Origin: an archaeon
GTDB taxonomy: Archaea; Nanobdellota; Nanobdellia; Pacearchaeales; GW2011-AR1
Length of the DNA stretch: 64,000 nt
Direction of reading: 5' to 3'
NCBI GenBank assembly: GCA_018651605.1
Contig: JABIDS010000009.1
Coordinates: 84,563-148,562, forward strand
The position numbers and the translations under genes are program-made. The notes beneath the pieces were generated by a model, which ran no database searches, was not told the DNA's origin, and saw only the letters and a program-made list of their open reading frames with translations. Below are positions 1 to 64,000 of the stretch, one piece after another (position 1 is the stretch's first letter; each line of letters begins with the position of its first letter).

Positions 1-1469
1 AGAAGTGGAAGAAGATTGGGGATTTGGGGTTGGTTGCTGAAAAGGTTATGGGAAAGAAAAAGCAAGGGACTTTATTTTCTAATATATTGATGACTAAGAA
101 GGTTTTGGAGAATTTGAGAAGACTTCCCGAGCTTAGTGGTAAGGGAGCTGTTGATAAGAAGATGTCTTTGATTTCTGAGTTGTTGACTTCTGCTTCTGGG
201 ATTGAGGCGAAATATATTATTAGGACTTTGTTGGGGCAACTTCGTATTGGTGTTGCGTCTGGGACTATAAGGGATTCTATTGCAGAGGCTTGTTTTAAAG
301 AGAAGACTAAGGAAAATGTTGAGGCTGTTCAAGATTCTTATGATAAGATTACTGATTTTGCTCTTGTGTTTGATAAGGCTTGTAAGGGTTTGAAGACTTT
401 GCATGCGACTAAATTGGTTCCTGGAAATCCTTTGAAAGCAATGCTTGCGCAGAAGGCAGATAGTATTGAAGATGGTTTTAAGAAAGTTGGAAGTCCTGCT
501 GTTTTTGAATATAAGTATGATGGGTTTAGGATGATGATTAATAAGGATAAGAATGGGGTGATAAAGATTTTTACTAGGAGATTGGATGAGGTTACTAATC
601 AGTTTCCAGATGTTGTGAAATATGTTAAGGAGCATATTAAGGCTAAGTCTTTTATTATTGACGGGGAGGCTGTTGGTTATGATTTGAAGACAAAAAAGTA
701 TAAGCCATTTCAGGCGATTTCTCAGAGGATTCGGAGGAAATATCATATTGAGAAATTGATTAAGGAATTGCCGATTGAGTTGAATATTTTTGATATTATT
801 TATTATGAAGGTAAGTCTATGATTAATGAACCTTTTTCTGAGAGAACTAAATTGATTAGAAAGATAATTAGAAATAATCCTTATCATCTTCGAACTGCGA
901 AGCAATTGATTACTGATGATGTGAAGAAGGCGAAGGAGTTTTATAAGCAGGCGTTGAAAGATAATCAAGAGGGTGTTATGATTAAGAATTTGGAGGCAGA
1001 GTATCGTCCGGGATTGAGAGTTGGACATATGTTGAAGTTGAAACCTGCTGAAAATGAATTGGATTTGGTGATAACTGGTGCAGAGTGGGGGAAGGGGAAG
1101 AGGGTTGGTATTTTGTCGTCATTTACTTTATCTTGTAGGGATTCTGTGAAGGGTGAATTTTTGGAGATTGGAAAAGCTTCTACAGGCTTAAAAGAGAAGG
1201 AAGAGTTAGGTTTGTCTTATGGTGAGTTGACTAAATTGTTGAAAGGGTTGATTGTTAAGGAGAAAGGGCGTGAGGTTTTGGTGAAACCTAAAGTTATTGT
1301 GACTATTCTTTATCAAAATATTCAGAGAAGTCCGACTTATAAGTCTGGGTTTGCTTTGAGGTTTCCGAGGATAATTGCTTTAAGAGAAGATAGGCATGCT
1401 GATGATGTTGCTACGTTGAAGGAGATTGGTGGAGATTATGAGAGGCATGAATTGAAGATTAGGTATTGA
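1..1469 (+). CDS. lig: ATP-dependent DNA ligase (5' end outside window)
   Basis: Frame 3 is open from the window edge. Adenylation motif KYDG occurs in FEYKYDGFRMMI, followed by EGVMIK and LKLKP ligase/OB motifs. Confidence 0.9.
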   Translation, partial: KWKKIGDLGLVAEKVMGKKKQGTLFSNILMTKKVLENLRRLPELSGKGAVDKKMSLISELLTSASGIEAKYIIRTLLGQLRIGVASGTIRDSIAEACFKEKTKENVEAVQDSYDKITDFALVFDKACKGLKTLHATKLVPGNPLKAMLAQKADSIEDGFKKVGSPAVFEYKYDGFRMMINKDKNGVIKIFTRRLDEVTNQFPDVVKYVKEHIKAKSFIIDGEAVGYDLKTKKYKPFQAISQRIRRKYHIEKLIKELPIELNIFDIIYYEGKSMINEPFSERTKLIRKIIRNNPYHLRTAKQLITDDVKKAKEFYKQALKDNQEGVMIKNLEAEYRPGLRVGHMLKLKPAENELDLVITGAEWGKGKRVGILSSFTLSCRDSVKGEFLEIGKASTGLKEKEELGLSYGELTKLLKGLIVKEKGREVLVKPKVIVTILYQNIQRSPTYKSGFALRFPRIIALREDRHADDVATLKEIGGDYERHELKIRY

Positions 1470-1479
1470 GGATTAAATT

Positions 1480-1695
1480 TTAATAAGGTCTTAGAGCGAT
1501 TCTTTCCTGATCTTGATGAGGTATTTTTCTAAAGACTTCTCCGCCTTCTTTATAGGTATCTAAGATTATTCTATAAAGTGTGAATGCTCTTCTAAAAACT
1601 TCTTCATCTTCAGACATTCCTTCTTGTTCTTTAATTTTATCTAAAAGTTTTGCTGCATCTGGTGAGACTTTTAACTCAATGGTTCTTCCTTTCAT
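1480..1695 (-). CDS. hypothetical small protein (71 aa)
   Basis: Clean ORF with codon style typical of minus-strand genes here. No recognisable motif. Confidence 0.45.
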   Translation of the reverse strand: MKGRTIELKVSPDAAKLLDKIKEQEGMSEDEEVFRRAFTLYRIILDTYKEGGEVFRKIPHQDQERIALRPY

Positions 1696-1761
1696 TTTAA
1701 ATATAATTATAAGGAGTTTATAATGATTTATATGTTCAACTCAATTCGAACTCATAACAAC

Positions 1762-1770
1762 TTTTATAAA
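1762..1770 (+). promoter_or_regulatory. TATA-box-like element for the 1792 gene
   Basis: ttttataaa is centred about 26 nt upstream of ATG 1792, the same geometry as several other genes in the window. Confidence 0.45.
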
Positions 1771-1791
1771 CTTGTGAATTGTTATCTAGGT

Positions 1792-2343
1792 ATGGTGAGG
1801 AAAAAATCTATGAATAAAATTGCTCTTTCTATATTAGTTAGTATTATATTAACTGTGATAATTGTTTCGCTTGTTAATGTTGGTTTGAGTATATTTATGG
1901 AGAGACCGGATTATTCTGATTTTTGTGGGGAGTTTAAAACTCAAGAAATAATGGATAGTCAGGAAAGTTGTGAGGCGATTGGTGGTAAATGGAATCCTGA
2001 GGGAAAGTCGTATCCTCCTGCTCGGGCTGTTGATGGTGATGTTCAAGTGATTGATGGATATTGTGATAGAGATTTCACATGTCGTGAAGAATTGGAAGAG
2101 GCTGAAGATGATTATGATCAAAAGAGATATTATGTTTTTGCTTTGATTGGTTTTACATTGTTGTTGATTGGTTTGTTTTCTAAGGAGATTTTAATTCAGA
2201 TAACTGGTTTGGCTTCTGGAGGTATTTTGGTTTTTGAAGGGATTGTGACTAATTTTGATAATAAGATTGTTACTTTTATTTCTCTTCTTTTGATATTTGT
2301 TGTGTTTGGAGTTTTGGCTTATAGGATTGTGAATAAGGATTAG
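1792..2343 (+). CDS. membrane protein, hypothetical
   Basis: Start moved to ATG 1792 (MVRKKSMNK). Has an N-terminal TM helix, a Cys-containing acidic ectodomain and C-terminal TM helices. Confidence 0.6.
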   Translation: MVRKKSMNKIALSILVSIILTVIIVSLVNVGLSIFMERPDYSDFCGEFKTQEIMDSQESCEAIGGKWNPEGKSYPPARAVDGDVQVIDGYCDRDFTCREELEEAEDDYDQKRYYVFALIGFTLLLIGLFSKEILIQITGLASGGILVFEGIVTNFDNKIVTFISLLLIFVVFGVLAYRIVNKD

Positions 2344-3512
2344 ATGTTTACTAAGTTCTCCCCTAAATAAAATCTTTCTCTTTGATTATATTCTGGTGTT
2401 GTTAAACATGCTAATGCGCCTTTTAATCCTATCTCGTTGTCAATAACTGCATAAACTGGGACTTTGTTTACCCATTCTCTTTGAGTTGGGCCGTTATCAA
2501 ATTCATTCATTATTACTCTTGCTATTCTTTTATCTAATTCTCCTGAACCTATTTTTGTTTCAATGTTTTTCATTAAAACTCCTCCTGTTCCATATATTCC
2601 ACCTTTTGCTCCTTCATGTAATGCTAAATCATGAAAAGCTCTTCCTAATGATTTCCAGACAAAATCCATTGTTTCTCCATAAATAGATCCTGGAACTTCT
2701 TTTGCTTTTTTTGCTATGTATGCTGTAGGAATTGTTTCAGTTAATGCTTTTTTGTATTCTGCAACTTCTGCTGGATTTGTTTCTTCTGATTTTAAGAATC
2801 TATTTGTATAAAGACAGTTAAAAATATCTTCAACTCCTCTTCCTGATAAGACTGCTTCTAAGTGAGGTACATCTGATTTATATTTTTTAGAAAGGTATTT
2901 TGAAATCATTATTTCTTTTTCGTCTGAGGGATTAATTGGTAAGAACTTGTGTCCTCCTTCAGAATCAAATGGGAAGTATAATTTTTTATCTCTGTCATAA
3001 TGTAATCTGGTTGTTCCTAATCCTGTTCCTGGGCCTTGTATTGCTATTGGTGCTTTTGGAATTGCTTCTTCTAATTTATTGTTTGTATGAAGTAGTTCAA
3101 GGACGTTTAAGTTCATCTTTCCTCTTTTGAATTCTGCAATAGAATAAGCTATTGCTTTGTAATCATTTATTAAAGCTGTTGGAATTTTGGTTGTTTTGGC
3201 ATTAACTGAAAAATCGCTGTTTGTCATTATACATTCTGATCCATCTTGGTTAATTGGTCCTGCAGGACTTAAAACCATTGCATTAATATTTTTTAATTTA
3301 GTTTCTCTAAGAATATCTTCTAAAACTTCGGTGTTGAAGTCTTTTGTTCTTTGCCCATTATAGTTTGCCTTAAAGATGCAATCTAAATTTTCATTGGTTT
3401 CTGAATATACTCCTATTAAAATATTTGTTGCACTTACATCTCCTGCGATATAGAATCTTGATGTTGCCTGAGGGATTTCTTTTCTTTCTAAAACTTTTTT
3501 TTCAGTAGGCAT
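2340..3512 (-). CDS. glk: glucokinase-family sugar kinase (Glk-like)
   Basis: N-terminal FYIAGDVSATNILIG matches the GDxGGTN-type phosphate loop. GPGTGLGT is typical of the Glk family. Confidence 0.6.
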   Translation of the reverse strand: MPTEKKVLERKEIPQATSRFYIAGDVSATNILIGVYSETNENLDCIFKANYNGQRTKDFNTEVLEDILRETKLKNINAMVLSPAGPINQDGSECIMTNSDFSVNAKTTKIPTALINDYKAIAYSIAEFKRGKMNLNVLELLHTNNKLEEAIPKAPIAIQGPGTGLGTTRLHYDRDKKLYFPFDSEGGHKFLPINPSDEKEIMISKYLSKKYKSDVPHLEAVLSGRGVEDIFNCLYTNRFLKSEETNPAEVAEYKKALTETIPTAYIAKKAKEVPGSIYGETMDFVWKSLGRAFHDLALHEGAKGGIYGTGGVLMKNIETKIGSGELDKRIARVIMNEFDNGPTQREWVNKVPVYAVIDNEIGLKGALACLTTPEYNQRERFYLGENLVNI

Positions 3513-3696
3513 TATTTTAGGTAGTGAATCTTATTTATTAAGACTATCCCAATATAAAATATCTTCACTATTATTTTATTTTTTTCACTATTACCTATTT
3601 TCCCTCGCTGTTTATTTCTCCTTACCGAAAGCTTTAAATAGGCATTTCCTTTATAAAGTTTATCATAAACGAAAATATAGTTACTATAAAATTACA

Positions 3697-4257
3697 ATGG
3701 CTACAATTAAATCTAAAACATCTTTAAAAATTCAAAATATTGTTGCGACGACTTCTTTGGGTAAAGATGTTCCTTTGACAAAGTTGGCGAAGACTATTCC
3801 TAATACTGAATATAATCCTGAGCAGTTTCCTGGTTTGGTTTTGAGAGTTAAGGAGCCTAAGTCTGCTGTTCTTGTTTTTTCGTCTGGGAATTTGGTTTGT
3901 ACTGGGACTAAATCAATTGCGCAGGTTAAGTTAGTTATTGAGCAGGTTATTAAGACACTTAAGAAAATAAATGTTAATGTTACTGAGAAGCCGAAGATTA
4001 CTGTGCAGAATATTGTTGCGTCTGGGAATATTAATATGATGTTGAATTTGAATTTTTTGGCTTTGGAGTTGGAGAATACTGAGTATGAGCCTGAGCAGTT
4101 TCCTGGTTTGGTTTACAAATTGATTGAACCTAATGCTACGTTTTTGTTGTTTAGTAATGGAAAGTTGGTTTGTACTGGGACTAAGAATAATCAACAGTTG
4201 AATGATTCTATGGAGCAGTTGTTAGAGCATTTGAAAGTTGCGATGAATAATAAGTAG
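3697..4257 (+). CDS. tbp: TATA-box binding protein
   Basis: Two direct repeats carry IQNIVAT/VQNIVAS, PEQFPGLV and LVCTGTK signatures. Confidence 0.95.
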   Translation: MATIKSKTSLKIQNIVATTSLGKDVPLTKLAKTIPNTEYNPEQFPGLVLRVKEPKSAVLVFSSGNLVCTGTKSIAQVKLVIEQVIKTLKKINVNVTEKPKITVQNIVASGNINMMLNLNFLALELENTEYEPEQFPGLVYKLIEPNATFLLFSNGKLVCTGTKNNQQLNDSMEQLLEHLKVAMNNK

Positions 4258-4363
4258 AGGTTTGTTTTTTTGAGAGGTTTAGTTTTGAAATGATGTAATT
4301 TTTATGATATGTTATGAGTTTTTAATTAGGTTTGAGTAGTCTTATAAAAACATATTTTAGAGT

Positions 4364-4645
4364 ATGGAATTATTTAAAAAGATTAATTGTAAACAGGATT
4401 GTATGACTGATAAATTCATTGGAAGGAGAATTGAAGAAAGGGAATTAGGAAAGGTTTTGGAAGGAGATTCTGCTGCAGAATTAGTTCTTGAAGGTAAACT
4501 TCCTTTTGCAGATGCTTGTAAGGAATATGGTAGAGAAAATATTGTTGCTTTAATTTATGCTCAACAAAAGGTTCAATATGGTGGAGGATTAAGGGCGATA
4601 AGTATGATGAGAAGATCAAGTCTCTATGAGGGAGATAGTTTTTGA
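4364..4645 (+). CDS. hypothetical protein (93 aa)
   Basis: ORF only. Uses A-ending codons, unlike neighbouring plus-strand genes. Confidence 0.4.
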   Translation: MELFKKINCKQDCMTDKFIGRRIEERELGKVLEGDSAAELVLEGKLPFADACKEYGRENIVALIYAQQKVQYGGGLRAISMMRRSSLYEGDSF

Positions 4646-4742
4646 TATTAATTTTTTTAATTTTAGATTAACCCCAACTCAAAACATCTTTCAAAAGATA
4701 TATATGTTTAAAAATAAATTGTTCTTTTTGATTTAGATAAAA

Positions 4743-5612
4743 ATGGGTATGTTTTCACTATTTAATGTAAGTAATACTGTGTATTTTCCAGGATGTGCGA
4801 CATATTTTAGATTTAAGGAGAATTTTGAGGTTTATCAGAGGGTTTTTTCTAGGATGGGGATTGGTTTTAGGTTGATTGATAAAAAGATTTGTTGTGGTGT
4901 TGATGCATTTGAGGCAGGTTATGAGGGTGAGGCGCGGAAGTTGGCTCGGCGGAATTTTGAGATATTTAAGGAAGAGGGGATTGATGGGATTATTACGAAT
5001 TCTCCTGAAGCATATAGAATGTTTTTGCAAAAATATCCTGATTTTTTGCCTGATTGGAATATTGAGGTTAAGAATGTTTGGAGTTTGATGCTTGAGAGAT
5101 TGAAGAATAAACCTAAATTGATAAAACATAAGGCAATGGAAGTTGTGACATATCATGATTCGTGTTCTCTTGGTAGGGGTTGTGGAAGTTATGATGATGT
5201 TCGTGAGATTTTGGAGTTGTTTGGTTATGAGGTTCGGGAAATGTCTGATTCAAGAGAAGAGAGTGTTTGTTGTGGGAGTTGTGGTGGATTGGTTGTGGTG
5301 AATCCTGAATTAGCTAATAAGATTGCTAAAGAAAGAATACTTCAGGCTAAAAGAATTGGTGTTAAGAAGATAGTAGTTTGTTCTATGAAAAATTATGAAT
5401 TGTTAGATAGAAATGCTGGTGATGATATGGAGATTGTTGAGCTTTCGGAGATTTTGGCTGTTGGTTTGGGTTTGAAAGTTAGAAGAGAAGAGAAGGAAGA
5501 ATATATTGATGGTGAAGAGAGAGTTATTAATGATACTCAGGCGAATATTAATATTGAGAGAGAGTTGAAGGATGAGGATTATTATGAAGGTAATGATGGG
5601 AGGGATAAATGA
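4743..5612 (+). CDS. cysteine-rich (CCG) domain Fe-S oxidoreductase subunit, GlcF/HdrB C-terminal-like
   Basis: Two CCG-type motifs (KICCGVDAFEAG, SVCCGSCGG) with FPGCATYF and YHDSCSLGR. Its stop overlaps the next ATG (ATGA). Confidence 0.75.
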   Translation: MGMFSLFNVSNTVYFPGCATYFRFKENFEVYQRVFSRMGIGFRLIDKKICCGVDAFEAGYEGEARKLARRNFEIFKEEGIDGIITNSPEAYRMFLQKYPDFLPDWNIEVKNVWSLMLERLKNKPKLIKHKAMEVVTYHDSCSLGRGCGSYDDVREILELFGYEVREMSDSREESVCCGSCGGLVVVNPELANKIAKERILQAKRIGVKKIVVCSMKNYELLDRNAGDDMEIVELSEILAVGLGLKVRREEKEEYIDGEERVINDTQANINIERELKDEDYYEGNDGRDK

Positions 5613-6001
5613 ATCAGAAATTAACAGAAAAAGTAACAGAAGAATTTAATAAAAGAACAGAAGAATTTGAAGGAGAGAGATTTGAAGGGATTAAAATTGT
5701 TGGTGTGCGTAGTTTAATTAGAGAATTAAATGCGAGGGGAAATTCAAGAATAAAATATGATTTAGAATTAGAAGTAACTGAGGAATGTAAGGACAGGGAT
5801 TATGCTAAAACTGCGCACCTTCGACCTGAAAAATTATTTATGTATAAAATTGTGCAAAAGAAAAATGATTCTTCTAAATATGTTGGAGTAATATATGAGT
5901 CCATGAAAAATCCTGAAAATTGTAGATTGCATTTTCAAACAAATGATAGAGAGTATGTGGAAGCACATTCTGAAATTGTATGGAGGAAAGCACAAAAATG
6001 A
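5609..6001 (+). CDS. hypothetical protein (130 aa) embedded in oxidoreductase operon
   Basis: ATGA start/stop overlaps with both neighbours. No motif. A-ending codon style differs from the flanking genes. Confidence 0.55.
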   Translation: MNQKLTEKVTEEFNKRTEEFEGERFEGIKIVGVRSLIRELNARGNSRIKYDLELEVTEECKDRDYAKTAHLRPEKLFMYKIVQKKNDSSKYVGVIYESMKNPENCRLHFQTNDREYVEAHSEIVWRKAQK

Positions 6002-7617
6002 AATTAAAAGAAACTGTTTGTTATAATTCTGATGCGTCTCGGATAGTTGGTAAAGCTGAGAAGGTTTTTTTTCCAAAGAATGTTGAGGAAGTTCAGCAAA
6101 TAATTAAGACAACAAATTTGGATATTGTTCCTCGTGGTGCTGGGAGTGGTTTGATGGGTGGTTGTGTTCCTAATAGTTCTGTTGTTGTTGATTTGTCAAA
6201 GATGAATAATGTTTCTGAGTTTAAATTTAAGGAGAGGAGTGTTAGGGTTGGAGCTGGAGTAACTATTAAGGAATTAAATGAGAAATTAAATCAAGTGGGA
6301 TTTGAATTTCCTATTAAAATTAATAATCCTGTTGCTACAATTGGTGGGGCTGTTGCTTTGAATTCTTTTGGAGAATATGGTTTGAAATATGGTTCTATTA
6401 AAGAATGGATTGAGGAGGTTGAGTTTGTTAATGGGCGAGGAGAGTTAATGAAAACTACTAAGGCTGATGTTTCAGATGTTTGTGGAATGGAAGGGACTAC
6501 TGGAATAATTTGTTCTGTAACATTAAGGGTTATTCCTAAAGTTAATAAATCTATATCTTTGTTTCAGTCTGATAATCTTGAAGAAGTATTTTCTATAGCT
6601 AGAAGACTTAAATTGGAAAAAGAAGTTATTATGATGGAGCTTTTTCCTCCAATGGTTTCTAAATTGTTGGGCTTTCCTGAAACTTATAATCTTGTTATAG
6701 AATTTGGTTCTGAGAGGGGAAAGATAAGGGGGAAGGAATATGACGAATTGTTGAAGGCGAAGGATAAGGTTTTTTCTGTTATGTTTTCTCAGGAATATTA
6801 TAATGTTGATGATCCTAAGTTTTTCTTTGATAAGGTTCGGGATTTTATTTCGTTTTTAGATTTGAATGAGATTCCTTATGTTAGTTATCTTGGGGCTGGA
6901 ATTGTTCATCCTTTTTTTAAGGATTTTGAGAAAAATAAAAAAAATGCTGTTGTTGATTTTATAAAAAAATCTCGGGCTAAGGTTTCTAAGTTTGGGATTG
7001 GTTCTGTTCGAAAGGAATTTTTGGATTCTTTTGAAAAGAAAGTTATTGAGAGGGTAAAATTGAGGCATGATCCTTTTGGGAAATTGAATAAGGGGAAGTT
7101 GATTGATGTTGATGCTCATGAGAAGAGGTTGGGTGTGGTTGGTTCGGAGGTTAAGAAGGTTAAGAGTGGTTTTGGGGGAGGGGTTGGTAGGGGTGGTGAA
7201 AAGGGGTTGGGAGCTGTTGGTTCTGAAGTTGAGGAAAGGAAACCGATTGTTAGGGATGTTGTGAAGAGGGTTGAGGAGGTTAAAAAGGTGGAGGTTTTGA
7301 AAAAGGTTGAACCTTTGGTTGAAGAGAAGAAAACTGTTAAGAGTATTTTGGAGAGTATGGAAAAGAAGAAGGAAATTGAAAGTGCTGCTATTAAGGATAA
7401 AGAATTTTCTAAACCTAAGACATCTGCAGAGGATTATAAAATTATTCAGGATATTATGAATAATCGGAAGGGTAGGGTTGAAGATAAGCCTGTTGATGAT
7501 TTTGAGAAAAAACCTGGGAATGAAGCTTCTTTGCCTAAGAAGGAAGAAGATAGTGATGATAAAGATTTGATTAATAGGATTATGACAAATAAATTTGAGG
7601 ATGATGATGAAAAATGA
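5998..7617 (+). CDS. FAD-binding oxidase (GlcD / D-lactate dehydrogenase-like) with long K/E/V-rich C-terminal tail
   Basis: VPRGAGSGLMGG FAD-binding PCMH motif; RHDPFGKLNKGKL matches the end of the FAD-oxidase C domain; about 160 aa of low-complexity tail follow. Start set to ATG 5998, which overlaps the upstream stop. Confidence 0.8.
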   Translation: MKLKETVCYNSDASRIVGKAEKVFFPKNVEEVQQIIKTTNLDIVPRGAGSGLMGGCVPNSSVVVDLSKMNNVSEFKFKERSVRVGAGVTIKELNEKLNQVGFEFPIKINNPVATIGGAVALNSFGEYGLKYGSIKEWIEEVEFVNGRGELMKTTKADVSDVCGMEGTTGIICSVTLRVIPKVNKSISLFQSDNLEEVFSIARRLKLEKEVIMMELFPPMVSKLLGFPETYNLVIEFGSERGKIRGKEYDELLKAKDKVFSVMFSQEYYNVDDPKFFFDKVRDFISFLDLNEIPYVSYLGAGIVHPFFKDFEKNKKNAVVDFIKKSRAKVSKFGIGSVRKEFLDSFEKKVIERVKLRHDPFGKLNKGKLIDVDAHEKRLGVVGSEVKKVKSGFGGGVGRGGEKGLGAVGSEVEERKPIVRDVVKRVEEVKKVEVLKKVEPLVEEKKTVKSILESMEKKKEIESAAIKDKEFSKPKTSAEDYKIIQDIMNNRKGRVEDKPVDDFEKKPGNEASLPKKEEDSDDKDLINRIMTNKFEDDDEK

Positions 7618-7964
7618 GTGTAGAGATTGAGAATGCAAAGCAGGAAATTGAAGAGATAATTGATAAGTGTATTAAATGTGGTTTATGTAAGTCGCGTTGT
7701 CCTGTTTTTAAAGTTATTAGGGAAGAGTGTGTTTCACCTAGAGGGAAGGTTAGTTTATTTGAGTCTGGTTTTTTTGATAAAATTGTTTATGATTGTACTT
7801 TATGTGGGGCGTGTGAGCAGGATTGTCCTTTGGGATTGAAACTTTGTGATGCATTTATTAATGCTAGGAAGATGTTGGTTTTTCAGAAAAAAGGAATTGA
7901 TGAGAATGAGGAAATGATTAGGAATTTGAATAAGAGAGGTAATGTTTTTGGTGAGAAGGAGTGA
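7614..7964 (+). CDS. 2x[4Fe-4S] ferredoxin-domain protein (GlcF N-terminal-like)
   Basis: CIKCGLCKSRCP and CTLCGACEQDCP cluster motifs. ATGA overlap with the upstream gene. Confidence 0.8.
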   Translation: MSVEIENAKQEIEEIIDKCIKCGLCKSRCPVFKVIREECVSPRGKVSLFESGFFDKIVYDCTLCGACEQDCPLGLKLCDAFINARKMLVFQKKGIDENEEMIRNLNKRGNVFGEKE

Positions 7965-8032
7965 ATATTATCTACTGAGTAGTTAGACTTTTGTTGAAGA
8001 AAGTTTTTAAATGATAAAATATTAAAAAATTT

Positions 8033-8425
8033 ATGACAGATATACGAGAAAAATACAAAGCTTATTTAAAACAAGCAGAAAGTTTACCAAAAGAAATGAA
8101 AAGACGCGGAATTCAATATGTGAATCCTAGATTTATGGAAACTGATTTTGTTGTTTATGTTGATGGAACTGCAGAAGTTCCAAGAAGAGCTGAATCTTTT
8201 TTGGAATATATTGGATTAAAATCAAGACCAATGAAAAGAATTGGGTTGGATAGTGTTGGAGAATTATTATATCACTTAACTTCTGATCCTAATCGATATA
8301 ACTGCGTTCCAAAAGATTTAAATCAAATTGATTCGTTTAATTTAGAAAGATTAACAAATGCACTTAGTTTAGAGGAAGATGTTGTTAGAAGCTCAAAAAA
8401 ACTAATAGAAGGTTTGGGATTTTAG
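8033..8425 (+). CDS. hypothetical protein (130 aa)
   Basis: ORF only, with A-ending codon style on the plus strand. Confidence 0.45.
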   Translation: MTDIREKYKAYLKQAESLPKEMKRRGIQYVNPRFMETDFVVYVDGTAEVPRRAESFLEYIGLKSRPMKRIGLDSVGELLYHLTSDPNRYNCVPKDLNQIDSFNLERLTNALSLEEDVVRSSKKLIEGLGF

Positions 8426-8841: not shown

Positions 8842-8844
8842 TTT

Positions 8845-9153: not shown

Positions 9154-9263
9154 TTTAGTACTCGTACAATTCTATATTAGGATTTTTTAATCCTGTAATC
9201 TGAAATTGTATAATAAGGTATCAAAAAAGAGGTTTTTAAAGTTTTTTGTTTGGGTTTTTGAGT

Positions 9264-54627: not shown

Positions 54628-54648
54628 TTGATTTGGGTTTTGATTTTT

Positions 54649-56271: not shown

Positions 56272-56280
56272 AAGATTGGT

Positions 56281-56425
56281 TCGCTTTCGCTCACAACTTA
56301 TTTTATGTCAAAGTGCCTGACTTTGTCAAGGCACTTTTCTAATTTTCTTGATATCTGTTAAAATTTAATATTTTATGGAGATTAGTTTTCTTTTTGATTG
56401 TTGTTATGGTTTGTGGTTTTAAGTG
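56281..56425. repeat. rearranged mosaic repeat copy (module B hairpin inverted, module A tail forward)
   Basis: 56281-56340 is the reverse complement of hairpin-GCGAaAGCGA..ATAAAATAAG..GAGCGAA. It is followed by the forward agttttctttttgattgttgttatgg. Confidence 0.65.
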
Positions 56426-56510
56426 AATGATTTATATTAATATTTTTTAATAACTTTAAAGTGGTAATAATCGAAAAGTTTATAAAGTCTTTATTTATTG
56501 AAATGTTAAT

Positions 56511-57014
56511 ATGACTGAAGAACAAACACAATCTCAATTTATCTTTTGGGTAAAAGAAGCGGGAGTCTTTAGACCTGCTGAATTGAAAATGCCTGAGAAT
56601 ACAACTACTTATGGTTTAGAAAAAAATATAGAATTAAGAGAACAAGATATTCCTTTAGATTCATTAAATTTATTAAGTTCTGTTTATCTGGGGGATATAA
56701 ATATCTTTAAAGGACAACTAGAAGGATATGCCTCTAAAGATGTTTTTAAGGAATTTAAATCTCATGTATATGGAACAGTTTCTAATATTGTAAAACTTGC
56801 TGAAGGAGTTGCAAAAGAACAAGGAGCTCCATATTTTGCAGTAAATGTTGTTCAAACACCTAAGGATAGAACTTGGAAATTTGAGAGAAATAGAGATTTA
56901 TTAAAATACGTTGCAGCTATAAATTTCACAAGTATAGTAAAACCATTTAATGAGCCAAAAGGACCCTCAGAATTTGTCCTTTGTCCTACTGCACAATTAT
57001 ATGTATCAAAATAA
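56511..57014 (+). CDS. hypothetical protein (167 aa)
   Basis: ORF with A-ending codon style on the plus strand. Confidence 0.5.
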   Translation: MTEEQTQSQFIFWVKEAGVFRPAELKMPENTTTYGLEKNIELREQDIPLDSLNLLSSVYLGDINIFKGQLEGYASKDVFKEFKSHVYGTVSNIVKLAEGVAKEQGAPYFAVNVVQTPKDRTWKFERNRDLLKYVAAINFTSIVKPFNEPKGPSEFVLCPTAQLYVSK

Positions 57015-57065
57015 TTAGATTCTTCTTAAGATAACATTTAAATATGCTTTACACTTTTCTATTTT

Positions 57066-58103
57066 ATGTTAGATCAATATATTTCAAATGATTATCTTCG
57101 GGCATTAGTTGTAATGATAATACTTTTTATTGTAATTAGGTTGGGTTTATATTTTGTTACGAAGATTGCGATTTTTTTGACTAGGAAAACAAAGAGTGAT
57201 TTGGATGATAAATTAATTGAACGGTCTTCGAATCATTTGCATCTTTTGACATTGTTTATTGTTTTGTTTTTTGGTATTGGTGAAATATCTTTGGCAGAGA
57301 ATGTGAAATTTATTGTGTATAATATTATTCATTCTTTGATGGCCGTAGTTTTAGCGCATCTTATTTATGTTGTCTTGGATTTGTTGTTTATTAGGGCGGT
57401 GAGTTTGATTTCTCAGAGAACTAAGACTCGAGTGAATCAGAGTTTGGTTGCTTTATTTCATAGTTTTTTGAGTGTTGTTCTGATTCTTTTAGTTGTGATT
57501 TATATTCTTGATTTATGGGGATTTGAGATTGGACCTTTACTTGCTGGTTTGGGAATTGCTGGTTTGGCTATTGCTCTTGCATTGCAACCTATACTAAGTA
57601 ATATTTTTTCAGGAGCTTCAGTGATATTGGATAAGTCTGTGAAGGTTGGAGATTTGGTTTATTTAGAATCTCAGAGTATTAAGGGAAGGATTGAAAAAAT
57701 TGGATTGAGAAGCACGCAGATAAGAACTTTTGATAATGAATTGATAATTATTCCGAATAATAAATTGGCTGATGGTGTGATTCAGAATGTTGCTTTGCCT
57801 GAGCCTAAGACTAGGGTGACTGTTCCGTTTGGTGTTGCTTATGGTTCTGATATTGCACAAGTTAAGAAGATTGTTCTGGGAGAGATTGGTAGGATTAAGG
57901 ATTTTGTGAATGAACCTGAGCCTGTTATTAGATTTAGTGAGATGGCGGATTCTTCTTTGAATTTTACTGCTTATTTTTATGTTAATAGTTTTGAAAATAG
58001 GGCTAGTGCTTTAGATGAAGCAAATACTCGGATCTATAATGCTTTGAATAAAGCAGGTATTGAGATTCCGTTTCCGCAGATGGATGTTAGGGTGGAGAAA
58101 TAG
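57066..58103 (+). CDS. mechanosensitive ion channel (MscS family)
   Basis: Multiple TM helices, then VKVGDLVYL...IRTFDNELIIIPNNKLADGVIQN, the MscS beta-domain signature. Confidence 0.8.
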   Translation: MLDQYISNDYLRALVVMIILFIVIRLGLYFVTKIAIFLTRKTKSDLDDKLIERSSNHLHLLTLFIVLFFGIGEISLAENVKFIVYNIIHSLMAVVLAHLIYVVLDLLFIRAVSLISQRTKTRVNQSLVALFHSFLSVVLILLVVIYILDLWGFEIGPLLAGLGIAGLAIALALQPILSNIFSGASVILDKSVKVGDLVYLESQSIKGRIEKIGLRSTQIRTFDNELIIIPNNKLADGVIQNVALPEPKTRVTVPFGVAYGSDIAQVKKIVLGEIGRIKDFVNEPEPVIRFSEMADSSLNFTAYFYVNSFENRASALDEANTRIYNALNKAGIEIPFPQMDVRVEK

Positions 58104-58122
58104 AGGTTTGGTTGATTGAGGG

Positions 58123-58415
58123 GTTTCCGCCACCGCGAAAATCCGTTCCTTACGTCACTTTCCCATTTTCTTACCGAGTCTTGAAATGTTGAGGAAGGGT
58201 TTATTTTTGAAGATGAGTTTTCTTTTGATTGTTATGAGAACTTAGTTTTTTACGAGTGATTAAGATTTAGGAGATTTCAGTATTTAGCGAAGCGGACTGG
58301 CGCAAGCCGTCCGCGAGAGCGATATAGAATAAGATGAGCGGAGCGAATGAAACTTGTGGAAGAGGGATATAAGCGAACGAAGTGAGTTATCTACGCGAGC
58401 GAAGCGAGCGTTTAG
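58123..58415 (+). repeat. mosaic intergenic repeat, full-length copy (with a 37-nt insertion in module B)
   Basis: Bulged-T hairpin with a GCAA loop at 58292-58314. The segment acttgtggaagagggatataagcgaacgaagtgagtt is inserted between gagcgaatgaa and atctacgcgagcg. Confidence 0.85.
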
Positions 58416-58431
58416 GTATTTTTATTTTTTA

Positions 58432-60312
58432 CTAACTATCAATCAATTCCTTCATCCTATCAGTCAAAAACCTTGTGAATTTTCCTCTTCCGTTTGTTAG
58501 GTGGAGGTTTTCTTTTGCTCTTGAAAGTGCAACATAAAATAATCTTTTTTCTTCTTCCTCTTTATCGTAATCTTCTATTTTAATCATTTCAATTATTGGA
58601 TGGTCTGAGGCTTTGCATGGGAAGTTTTGTTCATTGCATCCTATTATGAAAACAACTTTGGCTTCTAGTCCTTTTATTGCGTGGATTGTTGCAAGTGTGA
58701 TTTCTCCTTGTTTTGCAGTTAGGAGGGATTTTTCTTCTTCACTTCTGATTATGTGTTGGATTTTTTTTTCTTTCATTAATTTTGAAAGTGTATTTAGTTG
58801 TCTGTTTGTTCTTGCTAGGATGAATATTTCTTGTTTGTCTATTGTGGAGTTTTGTATCTTGTTTATTATGAAATTCATTTCTTGGGTTTCTGAATCAAAG
58901 TTTGAGAGAGTTATTTTTCCATTATCTTCTAATGAATGGTTTAAGTCTGGAAGGTTCATGTCTCTTATTGATTCGTTGAAGAAATTAATGATGTTTTTGG
59001 TGCTTCGGTAATTTTTTGTTAGGCTTATTGTTTCAGGATTTGTATGTGTTTTTTCAAAGTTTAGAATGTAGTTTATGTCTGAGCCTCTCCATCCGAAGAT
59101 TGATTGTCGTGGGTCTCCTACTGAGAAGAAATTTGGGGCGTTGAAGAGATTAAGGAATTTGATTTGGGTTGAGTTGACATCTTGGTATTCGTCTACAAGA
59201 ATGTGTTCAAATTCTGGGATGAATTCTTTATTTTCGGTTAGGAATTTCATTGCGTCTAAAACTTGGTCTGAGTAATCTCTTAATCCTGCACGGAACATAT
59301 ATTCTTTTAAATATTTACAAATATTGTAAATCATCTTTGCTATTTCTTTGTCGTCTTCATCTGCCTCTTCTGAAAAATCGTAAAGATCTAAATTTTTATA
59401 TTTGAAATATTCTAAAATAAAAAAACAATCATTCATGAAAATGCTTGCTAGTTGTTCTTTTGTTTTTAATCTTTTTTGGGCTACTGAAAAATATTTGTCT
59501 ATTGCTTCATTCATTTTTAAATTTAGATTTTGTAATGCTCCACTTAGTGCTATAACCTTGTTTCCATAGCTCATTATTTTAACATTTCTTCCGTAAATTA
59601 ATTGTCCATATTTTTGTAGAATCTTTTCGCAGAAAGAATTGAATGTTTCTACTTGGACGTCATTAATGTTTAGTTGGTTTAGTCTTGTTATCATTTCTTG
59701 ACGAGCTTTTCTTGTGAAAGTTACTGCGAGTATTTTTTCTGGGTTGATTCCTTTGAATTTTACTAAGAACTCTATTCTTTTTGTTAGTGCTGTGGTTTTT
59801 CCTGAGCCTGCTCCTGCAATGCATAATATTTTTTGGTTGCTAGAGATGATTGCTTTTTTTTGTTCGTCGTTGTAGTTATTTAGAAAAAAATCTAATTCTT
59901 TGAAAATTTCTCTGTCTTTGTCTGTTATTATTGTTTTTTTGAAGATGAAATTGTTTTTTAATTTTTTAGAATTTAATGTTGGGTTTTGAAATTCTTTTAT
60001 TCCTTTTTGTGTTAATTTTAAGTATTTCATAAATCTGTTGTTGTTTGCTTCTACGAATTCTAAGAGATTGTTGCTTACTAGGTTGTTTATGATTTTTTCT
60101 AGTTGTTCTTTAGTGGTTTTAGAGAGGATTCCGAATTCTTCTAGGAGGTTGAGTCTGTTTAGTTTTATAGATTTGTTATTTGGATTTCCTTGTAAAAAAT
60201 CTATGAGAAGTTTTTTTCCGACGCCGAAGGGGATTTTTTGAATTGTTTTTAAAATTATTAAATAATCTTGAGAGTCATCTCTTTTGTAGGTTGGGATTGG
60301 TTGTGAGTTCAT
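58432..60312 (-). CDS. UvrD/PcrA-family SF1 helicase with N-terminal winged-helix-like domain
   Basis: IAGAGSGKTT (Walker A), LVDEYQDVN, GDPRQSIFGWRG, and TIHAIKGLE...LFYVALSRAK. About 150 aa of extra N-terminus. Confidence 0.85.
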   Translation of the reverse strand: MNSQPIPTYKRDDSQDYLIILKTIQKIPFGVGKKLLIDFLQGNPNNKSIKLNRLNLLEEFGILSKTTKEQLEKIINNLVSNNLLEFVEANNNRFMKYLKLTQKGIKEFQNPTLNSKKLKNNFIFKKTIITDKDREIFKELDFFLNNYNDEQKKAIISSNQKILCIAGAGSGKTTALTKRIEFLVKFKGINPEKILAVTFTRKARQEMITRLNQLNINDVQVETFNSFCEKILQKYGQLIYGRNVKIMSYGNKVIALSGALQNLNLKMNEAIDKYFSVAQKRLKTKEQLASIFMNDCFFILEYFKYKNLDLYDFSEEADEDDKEIAKMIYNICKYLKEYMFRAGLRDYSDQVLDAMKFLTENKEFIPEFEHILVDEYQDVNSTQIKFLNLFNAPNFFSVGDPRQSIFGWRGSDINYILNFEKTHTNPETISLTKNYRSTKNIINFFNESIRDMNLPDLNHSLEDNGKITLSNFDSETQEMNFIINKIQNSTIDKQEIFILARTNRQLNTLSKLMKEKKIQHIIRSEEEKSLLTAKQGEITLATIHAIKGLEAKVVFIIGCNEQNFPCKASDHPIIEMIKIEDYDKEEEEKRLFYVALSRAKENLHLTNGRGKFTRFLTDRMKELIDS

Positions 60313-60352
60313 TTTAGAATTAGAAGGTTATGGTTTTTAAAATGTGGTGAGG

Positions 60353-61327
60353 TTAGTCGAATAGTTCGCTTAGGCTTTCTCCAATACTTATTCTATAAAT
60401 TGCTTCTCCAAGTAAGGGGGCAAAAGAGATAGTTTCAATAAAATCATTCTCAGGAATTTTTAAAGTATCTCCAATGTATAATTTATCTATATACTTATCA
60501 ATACCTTCAAATCCTTTAGTAAATAATCCATGAGTGCAATATACAATAACTTTTTTTGCTCCATGGTCTTTGCAAGATTTTGCTGCATCTTTAGAAGTCC
60601 CTCCAGAATCCCACATATCATCAACCATCAAAACATTTTTACCTTCAACATTTCCCAAAATTCCTAAACTTCCTCCAACTTCTCCTGGAACTTTTCTATA
60701 TTTATCTCCCATTGCTAAATCTGTAATTCCTAATTTATCTGCACAATTTCTTGCTCTTTTTATTCCTCCTTCATCTGCACTCATAACAATAAGGTCTTCT
60801 AAAATTCCAGGATTATACTTATTTAAATGAGATTCTAACACTGGATGAGAATCTAGTCCATCAAAAGGTATTTTATAAAAACCTTGTATTGCAGGATTAT
60901 GAACATCTAAAGTCAAAACCCTATCTGCATAAAGTCCAACAACATCTGCTACAACTTGAGCTCCAATAGGCACTCTTGATTCATCTTTTACATCTTGTCT
61001 TGCAAATCTTAAATAAGGAAAAACATCTATAATCTCATGAGCCGATGAATTTTTTAAGGCATGATTTACTAAGCAAAGTTCTGTAAACCAACGAAAAGGT
61101 TCCAAATTAGAATCATGAATCAAGAAACAATCTCTTTTTCTAATATCTTTCTCAATCTTTGGTTTAATTTCTCCATCCCTAAAACTATACTTTTTAGAAT
61201 GACTATCAATTTTCCTTAATTCAAATTCTATTCCTTTTTTATTTAGTATATATTCATGAATTCTACAAGCTAATCCCCAAGTTTTACCTTTAGGATTTGC
61301 AATAATGGAACATTTATTATCTACCAT
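60353..61327 (-). CDS. prs: ribose-phosphate pyrophosphokinase (PRPP synthetase)
   Basis: LDVHNPAIQGFYKIPFDGL and the PRPP loop VDDMWDSGGT. Confidence 0.85.
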   Translation of the reverse strand: MVDNKCSIIANPKGKTWGLACRIHEYILNKKGIEFELRKIDSHSKKYSFRDGEIKPKIEKDIRKRDCFLIHDSNLEPFRWFTELCLVNHALKNSSAHEIIDVFPYLRFARQDVKDESRVPIGAQVVADVVGLYADRVLTLDVHNPAIQGFYKIPFDGLDSHPVLESHLNKYNPGILEDLIVMSADEGGIKRARNCADKLGITDLAMGDKYRKVPGEVGGSLGILGNVEGKNVLMVDDMWDSGGTSKDAAKSCKDHGAKKVIVYCTHGLFTKGFEGIDKYIDKLYIGDTLKIPENDFIETISFAPLLGEAIYRISIGESLSELFD

Positions 61328-61390
61328 CTTTTACCTAAAAAACAAAAATTAATTTATAAACATTATAGCAATGAAAGATATACATTAGGT

Positions 61391-63175
61391 TTATTTGATG
61401 TATCCGCCTTTTTGGAGGTTCCAGAGTTTTTTGTATTCTCCTTTTTGTTGGATTAGTTCTGAATGTTTTCCCATTTGGATTATTCTACCTTTTTTTAAGA
61501 CGATGATTCTATCTGCGTTCATGATTGTTGAAAGTCTGTGTGCGATTATTACAGATGTTCTGCCTTTTAGTAATTTTTGAAGGTCTTTTTGGATTTCATT
61601 TTCTGTTTCTGAATCTAATGCAGATGTGGCTTCATCTAGAACTAATATTTTTTTGTTTGCTAAGATTGCTCTTGCTATTGAAACTCTTTGTTTTTCTCCT
61701 CCTGAAAGTTTGACTCCTCTTTCTCCTACAATTGTGTTTTCTTTGTCTTGAAAGTTTTCTATTACCTTATCTAATTGTGCAAATTTTATTGCTGATAAAA
61801 CTTGTTTTCTTGTTGCTTTTGGATTTGAGAACTTTATGTTGTTGTATATTGTGTCGTCGAATAAAACGCATTCTTGAGGAACAATTCCTGTTTCACTTCT
61901 AATTGATTCTTGTTTGAATTCTCGGATATCTTTGTTGTCAATTAAAATACTTCCTTGATTGACGTCATAAAACCTGTTTAATAGTTTTACTAGTGTTGTT
62001 TTTCCGCAACCAGAATGTCCTACAAATGCGACTTTTTCGTTTTCATTTATTTTTAGATTGAAATCTTGGAGGAATTTTCTACGCCCATAATTGAAATTTA
62101 CATTTTTGAATTCAATTGTTCCTTTTGATATCTTTAAGTTTGGTGCGTTGTTTTTGTCTTTTATTTCATTTTCAAATCTATTGTATTCAAATAATTCTTG
62201 GAAGTCTGCCATTGAACGATAAAATCCTCTTAATCCGTGGACAAATCCGAATATGTATACTAGGAGTCCTGCGAATGTTGTGTAAATGAATGTTAATGTT
62301 CCTAGGCTTATTTGTCCATTTAAGAATTTTACTAGAGAGAAGTAAAGTAAGACAAATGTTCCTGTTCCTAAGATTAGGGATTGTCCTGCGCTCATCCATC
62401 GGAAGTAGTCCCAGTTTTTTAGGTAAAAGGCTCGTGTTGTGTCTGATAGTTTGACGAATTTGTCTTCTACTACTTTTTCTTTTCCGTAGTATTTTACAGA
62501 GTCTATGTTTGTAAAAATATCTGCGACGTTTCCTTTTTCAACATCTTCTGCTTTGTTTGCTTCTATGTTTGATTTTTCTTGGAGTCTTTGCAAGATAAAA
62601 CTGTAACTAATGAAAATTATTACGGTGATTAACATAATCATTGCTGAAAATGTTTCTAGGTAGATTAAGGAGAAGAAAACTAATGTTAGTTGTAAGATTA
62701 GAGTTATGAAATTGAATGAGATTATGTCTGTCATTCTTTCTACTGCTCCTGCGCCTCTGCCGATTCTGGAAATTAAGCTTCCTGTTTTGTGTGTTGTGTG
62801 GAAGTTGTGGTCTAATTTTAATATATGGTTGAAGAATTTTCTTTTTAAATCTGTGATGACATTATTTTCAAGTCTGTTTAGGAAATGAATTCTTAACCAA
62901 TTTGAAATTGATGTTAGGATGAAGAAGGTGATGAAAACTGCTCCAACAATTATTAAGATGTTTGTGAAGGCTGTTCTGGTTAATATTCCTGTGTTGAAAT
63001 CTGTTCCATTGTCAATTATTACTTTGAATAAAAATTTGTCTACAATGACTCTTATTTCTTTTATTAATACGAAAAGCACGACTAGGAACATTAGTAATTT
63101 GTATTTTTTTAAAAGATTCCAATATATTCTGAAGTTGTATTTGAAGTCTATTTCTTTTGATGATTTTGTTCTCAT
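61391..63175 (-). CDS. ABC transporter, fused permease/ATPase (MsbA/multidrug-exporter type)
   Basis: Six TM helices at the N-terminus; GHSGCGKTT, LSGGEKQRVSIARA, ILVLDEATSALD. Confidence 0.9.
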   Translation of the reverse strand: MRTKSSKEIDFKYNFRIYWNLLKKYKLLMFLVVLFVLIKEIRVIVDKFLFKVIIDNGTDFNTGILTRTAFTNILIIVGAVFITFFILTSISNWLRIHFLNRLENNVITDLKRKFFNHILKLDHNFHTTHKTGSLISRIGRGAGAVERMTDIISFNFITLILQLTLVFFSLIYLETFSAMIMLITVIIFISYSFILQRLQEKSNIEANKAEDVEKGNVADIFTNIDSVKYYGKEKVVEDKFVKLSDTTRAFYLKNWDYFRWMSAGQSLILGTGTFVLLYFSLVKFLNGQISLGTLTFIYTTFAGLLVYIFGFVHGLRGFYRSMADFQELFEYNRFENEIKDKNNAPNLKISKGTIEFKNVNFNYGRRKFLQDFNLKINENEKVAFVGHSGCGKTTLVKLLNRFYDVNQGSILIDNKDIREFKQESIRSETGIVPQECVLFDDTIYNNIKFSNPKATRKQVLSAIKFAQLDKVIENFQDKENTIVGERGVKLSGGEKQRVSIARAILANKKILVLDEATSALDSETENEIQKDLQKLLKGRTSVIIAHRLSTIMNADRIIVLKKGRIIQMGKHSELIQQKGEYKKLWNLQKGGYIK

Positions 63176-63440
63176 TTTGGTCTCTTACTTTTTTAAAGTA
63201 GTTAATTTTTTGGGATGGGTTTAAATATTAGATTGTCTCGTGGTTTTTATGTTATATTCAGATAATGAATCTTTGGATAAGATGTTTGAAAAGGGTGATG
63301 ATGGTGATGCGGATGATGAAGATGAGGTGGATGGGGATAGTTAGGGGATGAGGGATTGGAGTGATTCTTAATAGAAAGTTGATATGTGATTTAAAGTTTT
63401 CGGTTTGATTTCAAGAGGCTCGGTTTAAGGGGGTTTGGAT

Positions 63441-63695
63441 TTTCCTCCACCGCAGAAAGCCGTGCTCGCACTTTCCCTTTCTGCCCTTAGTAATCTTGAA
63501 ATCTTGTTAGAGAGTTATTTTATTCAGAGGAGTTTTCTTTTGGTTGTTATGAGGGTTAAAAAGTTTTGTATAAATATTAAGACTTAGAAGATTTCAGTAT
63601 TTTAGTGAAGCAGACTGGACTTGTCCGTCTGCGAGAACGACATAAAATAAGTGAGTGGAGCGAATGAATCTACGCGAGCGATAGCGAGTGTTGAG
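63441..63695 (+). repeat. mosaic intergenic repeat, full-length copy
   Basis: Stem 1 at 63452-63484 (gcagaaag/ctttctgc); bulged-T hairpin with a CTTG loop at 63610-63632. Confidence 0.85.
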
Positions 63696-63726
63696 ATAGT
63701 TTTTTTTATAATTTCTAGAAATCTTT

Positions 63727-64000
63727 TTATTCCCTATCTTCTGCGCAACAGATTAAAGAGTTCATGCAATTTTCAACGCAACCTAAGTTTTTTTCGTTTT
63801 CATTGCATTCTAAATCAAATGATTTGTCTACTATTCTTCCGCCTTCTACTGTGCATTCTGCGATTGTGATTATGTTTTCATCTACGACTTCCCAGTCATT
63901 TATGTAGATTAATTCTTTTTCTTCTTTATTATCTACGCTTACTACAAAACATCCTGGGCATTCTACGGGGTTTATGTTTTCTATTGTTGGTGGGTCTTGG
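63727..64000 (-). CDS. cysteine-rich hypothetical protein (3' part; 5' end outside window)
   Basis: Hand-translated open frame ...ECPGCFVVSVDNKEEKELIYINDWEVVDENIITIAECTVEGGRIVDKSFDLECNENEKNLGCVENCMNSLICCAEDRE, with the stop at 63727-63729. Absent from the track because no start codon lies in the window. Confidence 0.5.
   Translation of the reverse strand, partial: QDPPTIENINPVECPGCFVVSVDNKEEKELIYINDWEVVDENIITIAECTVEGGRIVDKSFDLECNENEKNLGCVENCMNSLICCAEDRE

Follow-up and report, generated by a model that had tools for sequence, protein, structure and literature searches.

Replication-linked strand skew is a textbook phenomenon in which the leading strand carries more G than C and more T than A, and Borrelia burgdorferi is the textbook case of codon usage dominated by the strand on which a gene lies. 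An asymmetry also marks animal mitochondrial DNA, where the strand left single-stranded in replication undergoes deamination. Here we describe a bias of this general kind in a stretch of 64,000 nucleotides (the window) from contig JABIDS010000009.1 of an archaeon, in which the plus strand is rich in G and T throughout the resident DNA, as distinct from inserted blocks. The kind of bias is already known; its size, the lineage in which it occurs and the flips of its polarity between relatives are notable.

Following Chen & Chen 2007, the skew of a set of genes can be decomposed into a replication or strand term, which is half the difference between plus- and minus-strand genes, and a transcription or coding-strand term, which is half their sum. 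Among 185 bacterial chromosomes, the highest phylum mean of the all-position replication term is that of the Spirochaetes with 0.096 +/- 0.047 (PMC2031905). For archaea, an early survey reported a highest GC-skew index of 0.122 and found the classical archaea to be mostly without skew (PMC2684130), and a bacterial-type pattern was seen in only 18 of 224 RefSeq archaeal genomes (PMC7111523). The DPANN archaeon Candidatus Forterrea has a bacterial-type cumulative skew with cdc6 at the switch (PMC5905446). A G/C disparity of whole chromosomes has been described for UBA1400, an order within the candidate phyla radiation (CPR), with Microgenomates Ch65, Collierbacteria and Beckwithbacteria. In Ch65, C makes up 29.8% and G 15.0% without any A/T disparity, a single sign is documented over the entire closed chromosome, and possible unidirectional replication was proposed (PMC7143001). 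In the literature that we searched, whose incomplete coverage is no proof of absence, we found no description of strand skew in Woese- or Pacearchaeota, and the main text of a 2026 preprint on 208 complete Nanobdellota genomes, the part to which this statement applies, contains no discussion of strand bias.

Like the skew of bacteria and of single-origin archaea, the bias in the window follows the physical strand, peaks at third codon positions, makes one strand G+T-rich, alters codon and amino-acid usage, and leaves recently transferred genes as outliers. Unlike classical replication skew, it comes without a bias in gene co-orientation. It is also stronger: the replication term of the GC skew over all codon positions amounts to 0.25-0.30, compared with the 0.096 +/- 0.047 of the Spirochaetes (PMC2031905), and the Borrelia plasmid lp54, run through the same script as a rough benchmark, gave a third-position term of 0.14 compared with 0.73-0.81 in the window. 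The window shares with Ch65 an ultra-small uncultured host, a large strand disparity and genes split almost evenly between the strands, and with UBA1400 the existence of related lineages both with and without the trait. In contrast to Ch65, it belongs to an archaeon and not a bacterium and shows an A/T disparity (T 39.5%, A 27.7%), and the comparison sets a closed chromosome against only 64 kb. The size of the skew at fourfold degenerate sites and the excess of C>T and A>G on the same strand resemble animal mitochondria, although the window is part of a cellular archaeal chromosome and shows no detectable positional gradient over its 64 kb.

Strand bias of the resident genes

The strand bias of the resident genes is real and very large. 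We calculated skews for the 45 open reading frames (ORFs) of at least 90 amino acids outside the island at 35.8-50.6 kb, 24 of them on the plus and 21 on the minus strand. In coding orientation, the GC skew at third codon positions (GC3 skew) was mostly +0.75 to +1.00 in plus-strand genes and -0.45 to -0.83 in minus-strand genes. The two groups differed with p = 1.6e-8 for GC3 and 7e-8 for the corresponding TA skew (TA3) in Mann-Whitney tests, in agreement with the initial annotation of this DNA, which had described the plus strand as G/T-rich at third positions whatever the gene orientation. Read in plus-strand letters, the pooled third positions consisted of A.225, C.012, G.258 and T.505 in plus-strand genes and of A.251, C.050, G.187 and T.511 in minus-strand genes. 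At fourfold degenerate sites, where the bias was greatest, the respective values were A.193, C.009, G.174, T.624 and A.228, C.025, G.120, T.626, with a TA skew of +0.47 to +0.53; codon positions 1 and 2 shifted the same way.

The consequence is a pair of codon dialects, predicted by the strand in 37 of 37 resident genes. Between plus- and minus-strand genes, the share of AAG among lysine codons falls from 54% to 6% and that of TTG among leucine codons from 61% to 2%, while CTA (leucine) rises from 1% to 32%, AAC (asparagine) from 3% to 60% and TTC (phenylalanine) from 2% to 64%. Amino-acid usage is affected in the direction predicted from the strand bias, with valine at 8.2 vs 4.3%, glycine at 8.0 vs 5.8%, threonine at 3.5 vs 5.7% and asparagine at 5.3 vs 7.9% in plus- and minus-strand genes, respectively. 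The stretches quoted in the annotation to illustrate the two dialects were located in the thermosome gene (at 54,673) and the cyclophilin gene (19,780-19,827).

It is the physical strand, not the direction of coding, that the bias tracks. For the third-position GC skew, the strand term was 0.73 with all 45 genes and 0.81 with 8 outliers left out, and the coding-strand term was 0.18 and 0.13, respectively; for the third-position TA skew, the strand term was 0.36-0.45 and the coding-strand term about zero. Where a replication- or transcription-associated skew had been proposed, the replication type is the better supported, and transcription is a minor additive term only. The island (+0.29) and the unskewed relatives (+0.2 to +0.3) have a coding-strand term of this kind as well.

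In the whole window, the plus strand contains 11,943 G vs 8,442 C and 24,889 T vs 18,726 A, corresponding to a GC skew of +0.17 and a TA skew of +0.14 at 31.9% G+C. The resident DNA, 44,952 nt in total, is composed of 21.0% G, 11.9% C, 39.5% T and 27.7% A, with an overall TA skew of +0.175. Since plus- and minus-strand genes contribute almost equal amounts of its coding DNA (19.6 kb vs 19.0 kb), the skew cannot stem from the way the genes point, and resident spacers of all four gene-orientation types have the same skew sign. No gradient was detected along the 64 kb, which are a short window for such a test (position vs skew, Spearman p = 0.26 and 0.30). The resident genes keep one sign throughout, without a switch, and no Orc1/Cdc6 gene was found among the window ORFs scanned, which included every ORF of at least 300 amino acids; the window therefore shows no signature of an origin or terminus, as had been stated from the letters. 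Gene strands were checked with Pfam matches on both strands, which exclude a mis-assignment. The resident DNA and its genes are as follows.

1..29647: resident biased DNA, plus strand G/T-rich, GC skew +0.31, TA skew +0.17; genes for DNA ligase, glucokinase, TBP, a GlcD-like/CCG/Fer4 cluster, PGM, SNase, U32 peptidase, GTPase, HAD, DEAD and SNF2 helicases, cyclophilin, FKBP and a Hef-associated-nuclease-like DHH protein
33919..35807: resident biased DNA, GC skew +0.32; M10/CARDB peptidase gene and a small acidic repeat ORF
50585..64000: resident biased DNA, GC skew +0.21, TA skew +0.20; genes for thermosome, CBS protein, MscS, UvrD-like helicase and ABC transporter
54649..56271, plus strand: thermosome, example of the plus-strand codon dialect, GC3 skew +0.93, TA3 skew +0.5
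17847..23752, minus strand: block of DEAD helicase, cyclophilin, a 424-aa protein and SNF2 helicase, example of the minus-strand codon dialect
Plus strand, oriented by Pfam: ligase, TBP, CCG/FAD/Fer4 proteins, SNase, GTPase, HAD, FKBP, DHH nuclease, DEAD helicase
Minus strand, oriented by Pfam: PGM, U32 peptidase, DEAD helicase, cyclophilin, SNF2 helicase, DUF445, GIY-YIG, ribosomal protein S10

The small ORF in the second of these segments (35,048-35,296, minus strand), just upstream of a tRNA-Tyr gene, encodes 82 amino acids of highly acidic, low-complexity sequence with tandem repeats rich in Glu, Ala, Thr and Pro (EEAxEE...). The best matches of the thermosome are metagenome-assembled genomes labelled Woesearchaeota, Pacearchaeota or Nanoarchaeia, at no more than 78% identity, and the host is accordingly an uncultured DPANN archaeon of the Woese-/Pacearchaeota group (Nanoarchaeota/Nanobdellota).

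The asymmetry had also been invoked to explain the long antisense shadow ORFs. This applies opposite plus-strand genes, where the codon-aligned density of antisense stops is only 0.028 because the bias depletes TTA, CTA and TCA codons there, and where open antisense stretches reach up to 348 codons. Opposite minus-strand genes, the density is 0.10 and ORFs are shortened; in the unbiased island, it is about 0.07.

Inserted blocks and genes without the bias

Two blocks next to tRNA genes interrupt the biased DNA, and the larger of them, an element of 14.8 kb at tRNA-Tyr, was used as an internal control.

35746..35818, plus strand: tRNA-Tyr, whose 3' end is the left copy of a 12-bp direct repeat, TGCTCGAGGGAT (35,808-35,819)
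35808..50584: 14.8-kb inserted element, starting at the 3' end of tRNA-Tyr, with the right copy of TGCTCGAGGGAT at 50,573-50,584
29580..29651, plus strand: tRNA-Asp, whose 3' end overlaps the left copy of an 11-bp repeat
29659..33907, minus strand: adhesin block, between direct 11-bp repeats GGCGTTTTCTT at 29,648 and 33,908

The 14.8-kb element has 28% G+C and a GC3 skew of about +0.3 in coding orientation on both strands; its strand term is -0.02, and its plus- and minus-strand genes do not differ (p = 0.72 and 0.86). A repeat match of the 12-bp type arose in 46 of 2,000 shuffles, and the composition changes exactly at the right copy, from a GC3 skew of +0.33 (49,930-50,532) to +0.87 (50,631-51,320). 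The first gene of the element (35,876-36,970) is weakly integrase-like according to a PHROG integrase match (E = 2e-4), a relationship for which Pfam, NCBIfam and PDB searches gave no support. Other genes of the element code for a nuclease of the Exo_endo_phos type, for DUF559-like and HNH-like endonucleases, for an M10 peptidase, and for a protein of 709 amino acids that has neither a family match nor a relative in IMG/VR.

The adhesin block contains the gene (29,785-33,729, minus strand) of a 1,314-aa FG-GAP/GEVED protein, with almost no strand bias (GC3 skew +0.16 and TA3 skew -0.05 in plus-strand letters). The block is probably an insertion. It resembles a second tRNA-targeted insertion, without a recognisable integrase. 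To the right of the window, the 187,661-bp source contig from JGI metagenome 3300072015 continues for approximately 7 kb to its end. This final part, with genes for a dUTPase and for a 411-aa protein that weakly matches phage integrases and with several small ORFs, probably constitutes another mobile element.

Single genes also deviate. The gene prs for ribose-phosphate diphosphokinase (60,353-61,327, minus strand) shows no bias, with a GC3 skew of -0.24 in plus-strand letters and a very low GC3 of 0.13. Its product fits the bacterial-type NCBIfam model PRK01259 (1e-70) better than PRK00934 (1e-39), and these sequence features suggest that prs was recently replaced through horizontal transfer. 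The gene at 56,511-57,014 also lacks the bias, and in 5-6 more small genes it is weak or absent. In the gene for ribosomal protein S10 (8,845-9,153, minus strand), the bias is weak (GC3 skew +0.22 in plus-strand letters), which may reflect translational selection opposing the mutational bias or merely the small size of the gene.

The claim that the plus strand is enriched over the whole 64 kb without a sign change is consequently correct for the resident genes only: at 30-34 kb and 38-50 kb the raw GC skew falls below zero, and the bias is missing from the 35.8-50.6 kb island, the adhesin block and individual genes such as prs. The adhesin and prs genes, which had been cited as examples of the minus-strand dialect, are in fact exceptions to it.

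Relatives with, without and with inverted bias

We compared the window with approximately 95 loci around thermosome or ligase genes of related archaea, designated here by L numbers. Their strand component ranged from 0 to about 0.56, and the window was the most extreme. The trait is distributed unevenly: in the thermosome tree, the window groups with the strongly biased L005 and L006 and also with L002-L004, where a strand component is absent. The GC3 skew of the thermosome gene was +0.93 in the window and +0.95 in L006, compared with -0.62 in L056 and -0.52 in L034, and that of the ligase-TBP pair was +0.97/+0.97 in the window, compared with -0.19 to -0.33 in L086 and L088, whose TBP is 86-89% identical to that of the window.

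Closer relatives were found through a protein search with the SNF2 helicase, namely L166/L172 (94% identity) and L168-L171 (81%). L166/L172 have the gene order and the polarity of the window, with a strand component of 0.68. L168-L171 have the gene order and relative orientations of the window over approximately 20 kb with a strand component of 0.63, and their polarity is inverted, as seen in the GC3 skews of single genes.

SNF2: L168 +0.75, window -0.55
Cyclophilin: L168 +0.80, window -0.73
DEAD helicase: L168 +0.78, window -0.63
U32 peptidase: L168 +0.92, window -0.76
HAD: L168 -0.39, window +0.97
FKBP: L168 -0.42, window +0.96

From this inverted polarity it follows that the bias belongs to the role of the strand and not to the genes, and its re-equilibration takes no longer than the time needed for about 20% protein divergence. 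The inversion in L168/L169 and in L086/L088 would be one relative to the replication fork. No sign switch was present within any of the skewed loci of about 20 kb in the relatives, and a Walker-A screen of the DPANN loci yielded no Orc1/Cdc6.

In a metagenome scan with the ligase, the best match was 74% identical. Strain-level polymorphism proved useless as a record of mutation, since the assemblies of the window differ by at most 1 base and the L168-L171 copies at 0-7 sites only. Gene flux is visible even among very close populations: L166 carries an extra, unbiased TPR gene (2,733-3,392) between SNF2 and the next gene, and in the 94% relative (on a 493-kb contig) inserted UvrD-like and RelA/SpoT genes separate GIY-YIG from the DHH nuclease. 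JGI metagenome 3300072015 contains three related populations side by side, on contigs of 187,661, 493,049 and 86,973 bp, with SNF2 proteins 100%, 94% and 85% identical to that of the window. In the moderately skewed ligase loci L105, L106, L119, L122 and L146, a small and local sample, most genes lie on the C/A-rich strand (16 vs 5 in L105, for example). This is the opposite of bacteria, which usually place genes on the G-rich leading strand.

Direction of substitution and the cause of the asymmetry

Averaged over plus- and minus-strand genes, the fourfold degenerate sites contain A.210, C.017, G.147 and T.625. From these values, the quotient (T/C)/(A/G) amounts to 25 (bootstrap range 13-64), compared with 0.7 in the inserted element; it equals the asymmetry of C>T vs G>A multiplied by that of A>G vs T>C. 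With symmetric transversion rates, a composition with more G than C would force an excess of T over A, and the observed (T-A)/(G-C) of 3.2 would correspond to the ratio of transversion rates at G:C vs A:T pairs. Replacement changes were polarised by outgroups at codon positions 1 and 2 of 9 genes in the lineages of the window and of L166/L172. In plus-strand letters, C>T was counted 65 times vs 21 for G>A, and A>G 102 times vs 51 for T>C. After balancing plus- and minus-strand genes, by which coding-strand effects cancel, the ratios were 2.27 for C>T/G>A (95% confidence interval 1.29-4.00), 3.25 for A>G/T>C (95% confidence interval 2.06-5.13), 0.90 for G>T/C>A and 0.81 for A>C/T>G. Both deamination-type transitions are raised on the plus strand, and the process is still active. 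Because the sites are under selection, the substitution ratios are probably lower bounds. A conclusion that the asymmetry lies almost wholly in A>G was dropped, as synonymous transitions between the window and L166 are near saturation (32 A<>G and 4 C<>T observed, with hand-computed saturation expectations of about 19 and 6).

We consider a mutational asymmetry of the deamination type, tied to the direction of replication, to be the probable cause of the bias. The bias follows the physical strand, concentrates at degenerate sites, is absent from the insertions, flips its polarity in a relative and agrees with the direction of recent substitutions. From these observations we infer that the two strands would have mutated at different rates over the long term according to their role in replication, with C>T and A>G commoner on the plus strand than the complementary changes G>A and T>C. 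Deamination of cytosine and adenine yields just these two commoner changes, and deamination of single-stranded DNA is the chemistry that we propose. Weakly selected plus-strand sites would then drift towards about 62% T, 21% A, 15% G and less than 2% C. By analogy with bacteria and single-origin archaea, the plus strand would be the leading strand, which serves as the template of the lagging strand and would be single-stranded for longer, and forks would traverse the window in the left-to-right direction. On the coding strand, G is slightly preferred to C, an effect of transcription or translation that adds to the bias in plus-strand genes and subtracts from it in minus-strand genes. Recently arrived DNA would have had too little time to acquire the bias, and a block reversed relative to the fork would re-equilibrate to the opposite one.

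Several observations weigh against this explanation. No origin, terminus or sign switch was seen, so that the case for a tie to replication is made by analogy and by the flip in polarity. L002-L004, the closest relatives by thermosome, have no strand component, and the cause must consequently be gained and lost quickly. Genes show no preferential co-orientation with the presumed fork (24 vs 21). Only 9 genes, and in them sites under selection, supplied the polarised counts, most outgroups being of opposite polarity, and the near-saturation of synonymous transitions between the window and L166 means that neutral-site rates are not directly available. Finally, a purely neutral model predicts spacers similar to fourfold degenerate sites, whereas the skews of resident spacers (GC skew +0.28 to +0.44, TA skew +0.08 to +0.17) are 2-3 times weaker and their G+C content is 31-37% compared with 16%, so that a further factor has to be invoked. 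The spacer values would be accounted for by selective constraint in a compact genome, by small genes missed in annotation or by fast turnover of the spacers. In a search of the window with Rfam, even at a permissive threshold, two tRNAs only were found, and known RNAs do not account for the GC-rich spacers (31-41% G+C), examples of which lie at 16,138-16,516, 58,104-58,431 and 63,176-63,650.

The asymmetry could be linked to replication and nevertheless arise from the error spectra or the proofreading of the enzymes copying each strand and not from single-strand deamination, for instance if, in a lineage that lacks mismatch repair, one strand suffered misinsertion of G opposite template T. By composition or substitution counts, A>G on one strand looks just like T>C on its partner, the asymmetry of A>G/T>C (3.25) is no smaller than that of C>T/G>A (2.27), A:T>G:C changes are typical of polymerase errors, and changed replication or repair genes would give a trait that varies among close relatives, as observed. 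Set against these points, the two deamination-type transitions are elevated together on one strand, and G>T/C>A and A>C/T>G show no asymmetry; this is how the deamination of single strands manifests itself in the mitochondria of vertebrates. We rate copying errors as a rather unlikely cause, albeit the most serious competitor of deamination. Distinctly less probable is a very asymmetric replication (unidirectional, by strand displacement or by rolling circle) that would impose one sign around the whole chromosome, as in animal mitochondria. The magnitude at fourfold degenerate sites is nearer to mitochondrial than to bacterial values, the all-position term (0.25-0.30) exceeds the bacterial phylum-mean maximum (0.096; PMC2031905), every skewed locus of about 20 kb in the relatives has a single sign, and a one-signed GC disparity of whole chromosomes is known in small-genome CPR bacteria (PMC7143001). 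However, Ch65 lacks the A/T disparity that the window has, a complete DPANN genome shows the two-armed pattern with cdc6 at the switch (PMC5905446), no skew gradient was seen over the 64 kb, and two replichores would readily account for the inverted syntenic block.

Mutation or repair associated with transcription, or selection of codons for translation, would account for the coding-strand term, which exists in the window (third-position GC skew +0.13 to +0.18) and likewise in the island and the unskewed relatives. As the main cause, transcription is excluded because the sign in coding orientation reverses between plus- and minus-strand genes, and codon selection because the two dialects, with AAG at 54 vs 6% and AAC at 3 vs 60%, are read by a single pool of tRNAs and orthologues switch dialect from one relative to another; taken together, these causes retain only a very small probability. 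An artefact, be it bisulfite-like C>T damage, a chimeric assembly or two gene pools split by strand, is more improbable still, with nothing in its favour beyond the unusual effect size. In independent ENA assemblies, four short contigs match the window at 99.97-100% identity with at most 1 base different each, a match by which an assembly or damage artefact is discounted. In addition, the effect is specific to the codon position, the encoded proteins are conserved and undamaged, the phenomenon recurs in relatives sampled elsewhere, and the strand predicts the dialect without exception in the resident genes.

The bias found here has practical consequences. Gene finders based on codon usage, detectors of horizontal gene transfer, signature-based binning and predictors of expression will go wrong on such genomes, since each strand resembles a separate organism and spurious long ORFs turn up opposite plus-strand genes. 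The strand-dependent amino-acid composition, nearly two-fold for valine, together with the dialect flips can mislead DPANN trees. At the same time, the bias is a built-in clock and compass, marking recent insertions by sharp borders and the direction of replication in organisms that cannot be cultured.

Returning to replication-tied deamination as the preferred cause, the mutation regime of this cellular genome could resemble that of a mitochondrion if one strand remained single-stranded for an unusually long time in this DPANN lineage. We regard this as a doubtful, speculative extension. It could come about through uncoupled or strand-displacement-like and possibly unidirectional replication, or through the loss of the sensing or repair of uracil and hypoxanthine. 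If it is true, the missing bias in some very close relatives and the flip in polarity of a syntenic block would mean that sister populations have quickly changed their use of origins or their mode of replication; possible reasons for populations free of the bias are different repair or replication genes or the lack of a fixed origin. Sister populations with the bias, without it and with its inversion co-occur in public metagenomes, which makes them a favourable system for finding the replication or repair gene, or the usage of origins, that sets the mutational strand asymmetry in archaea.

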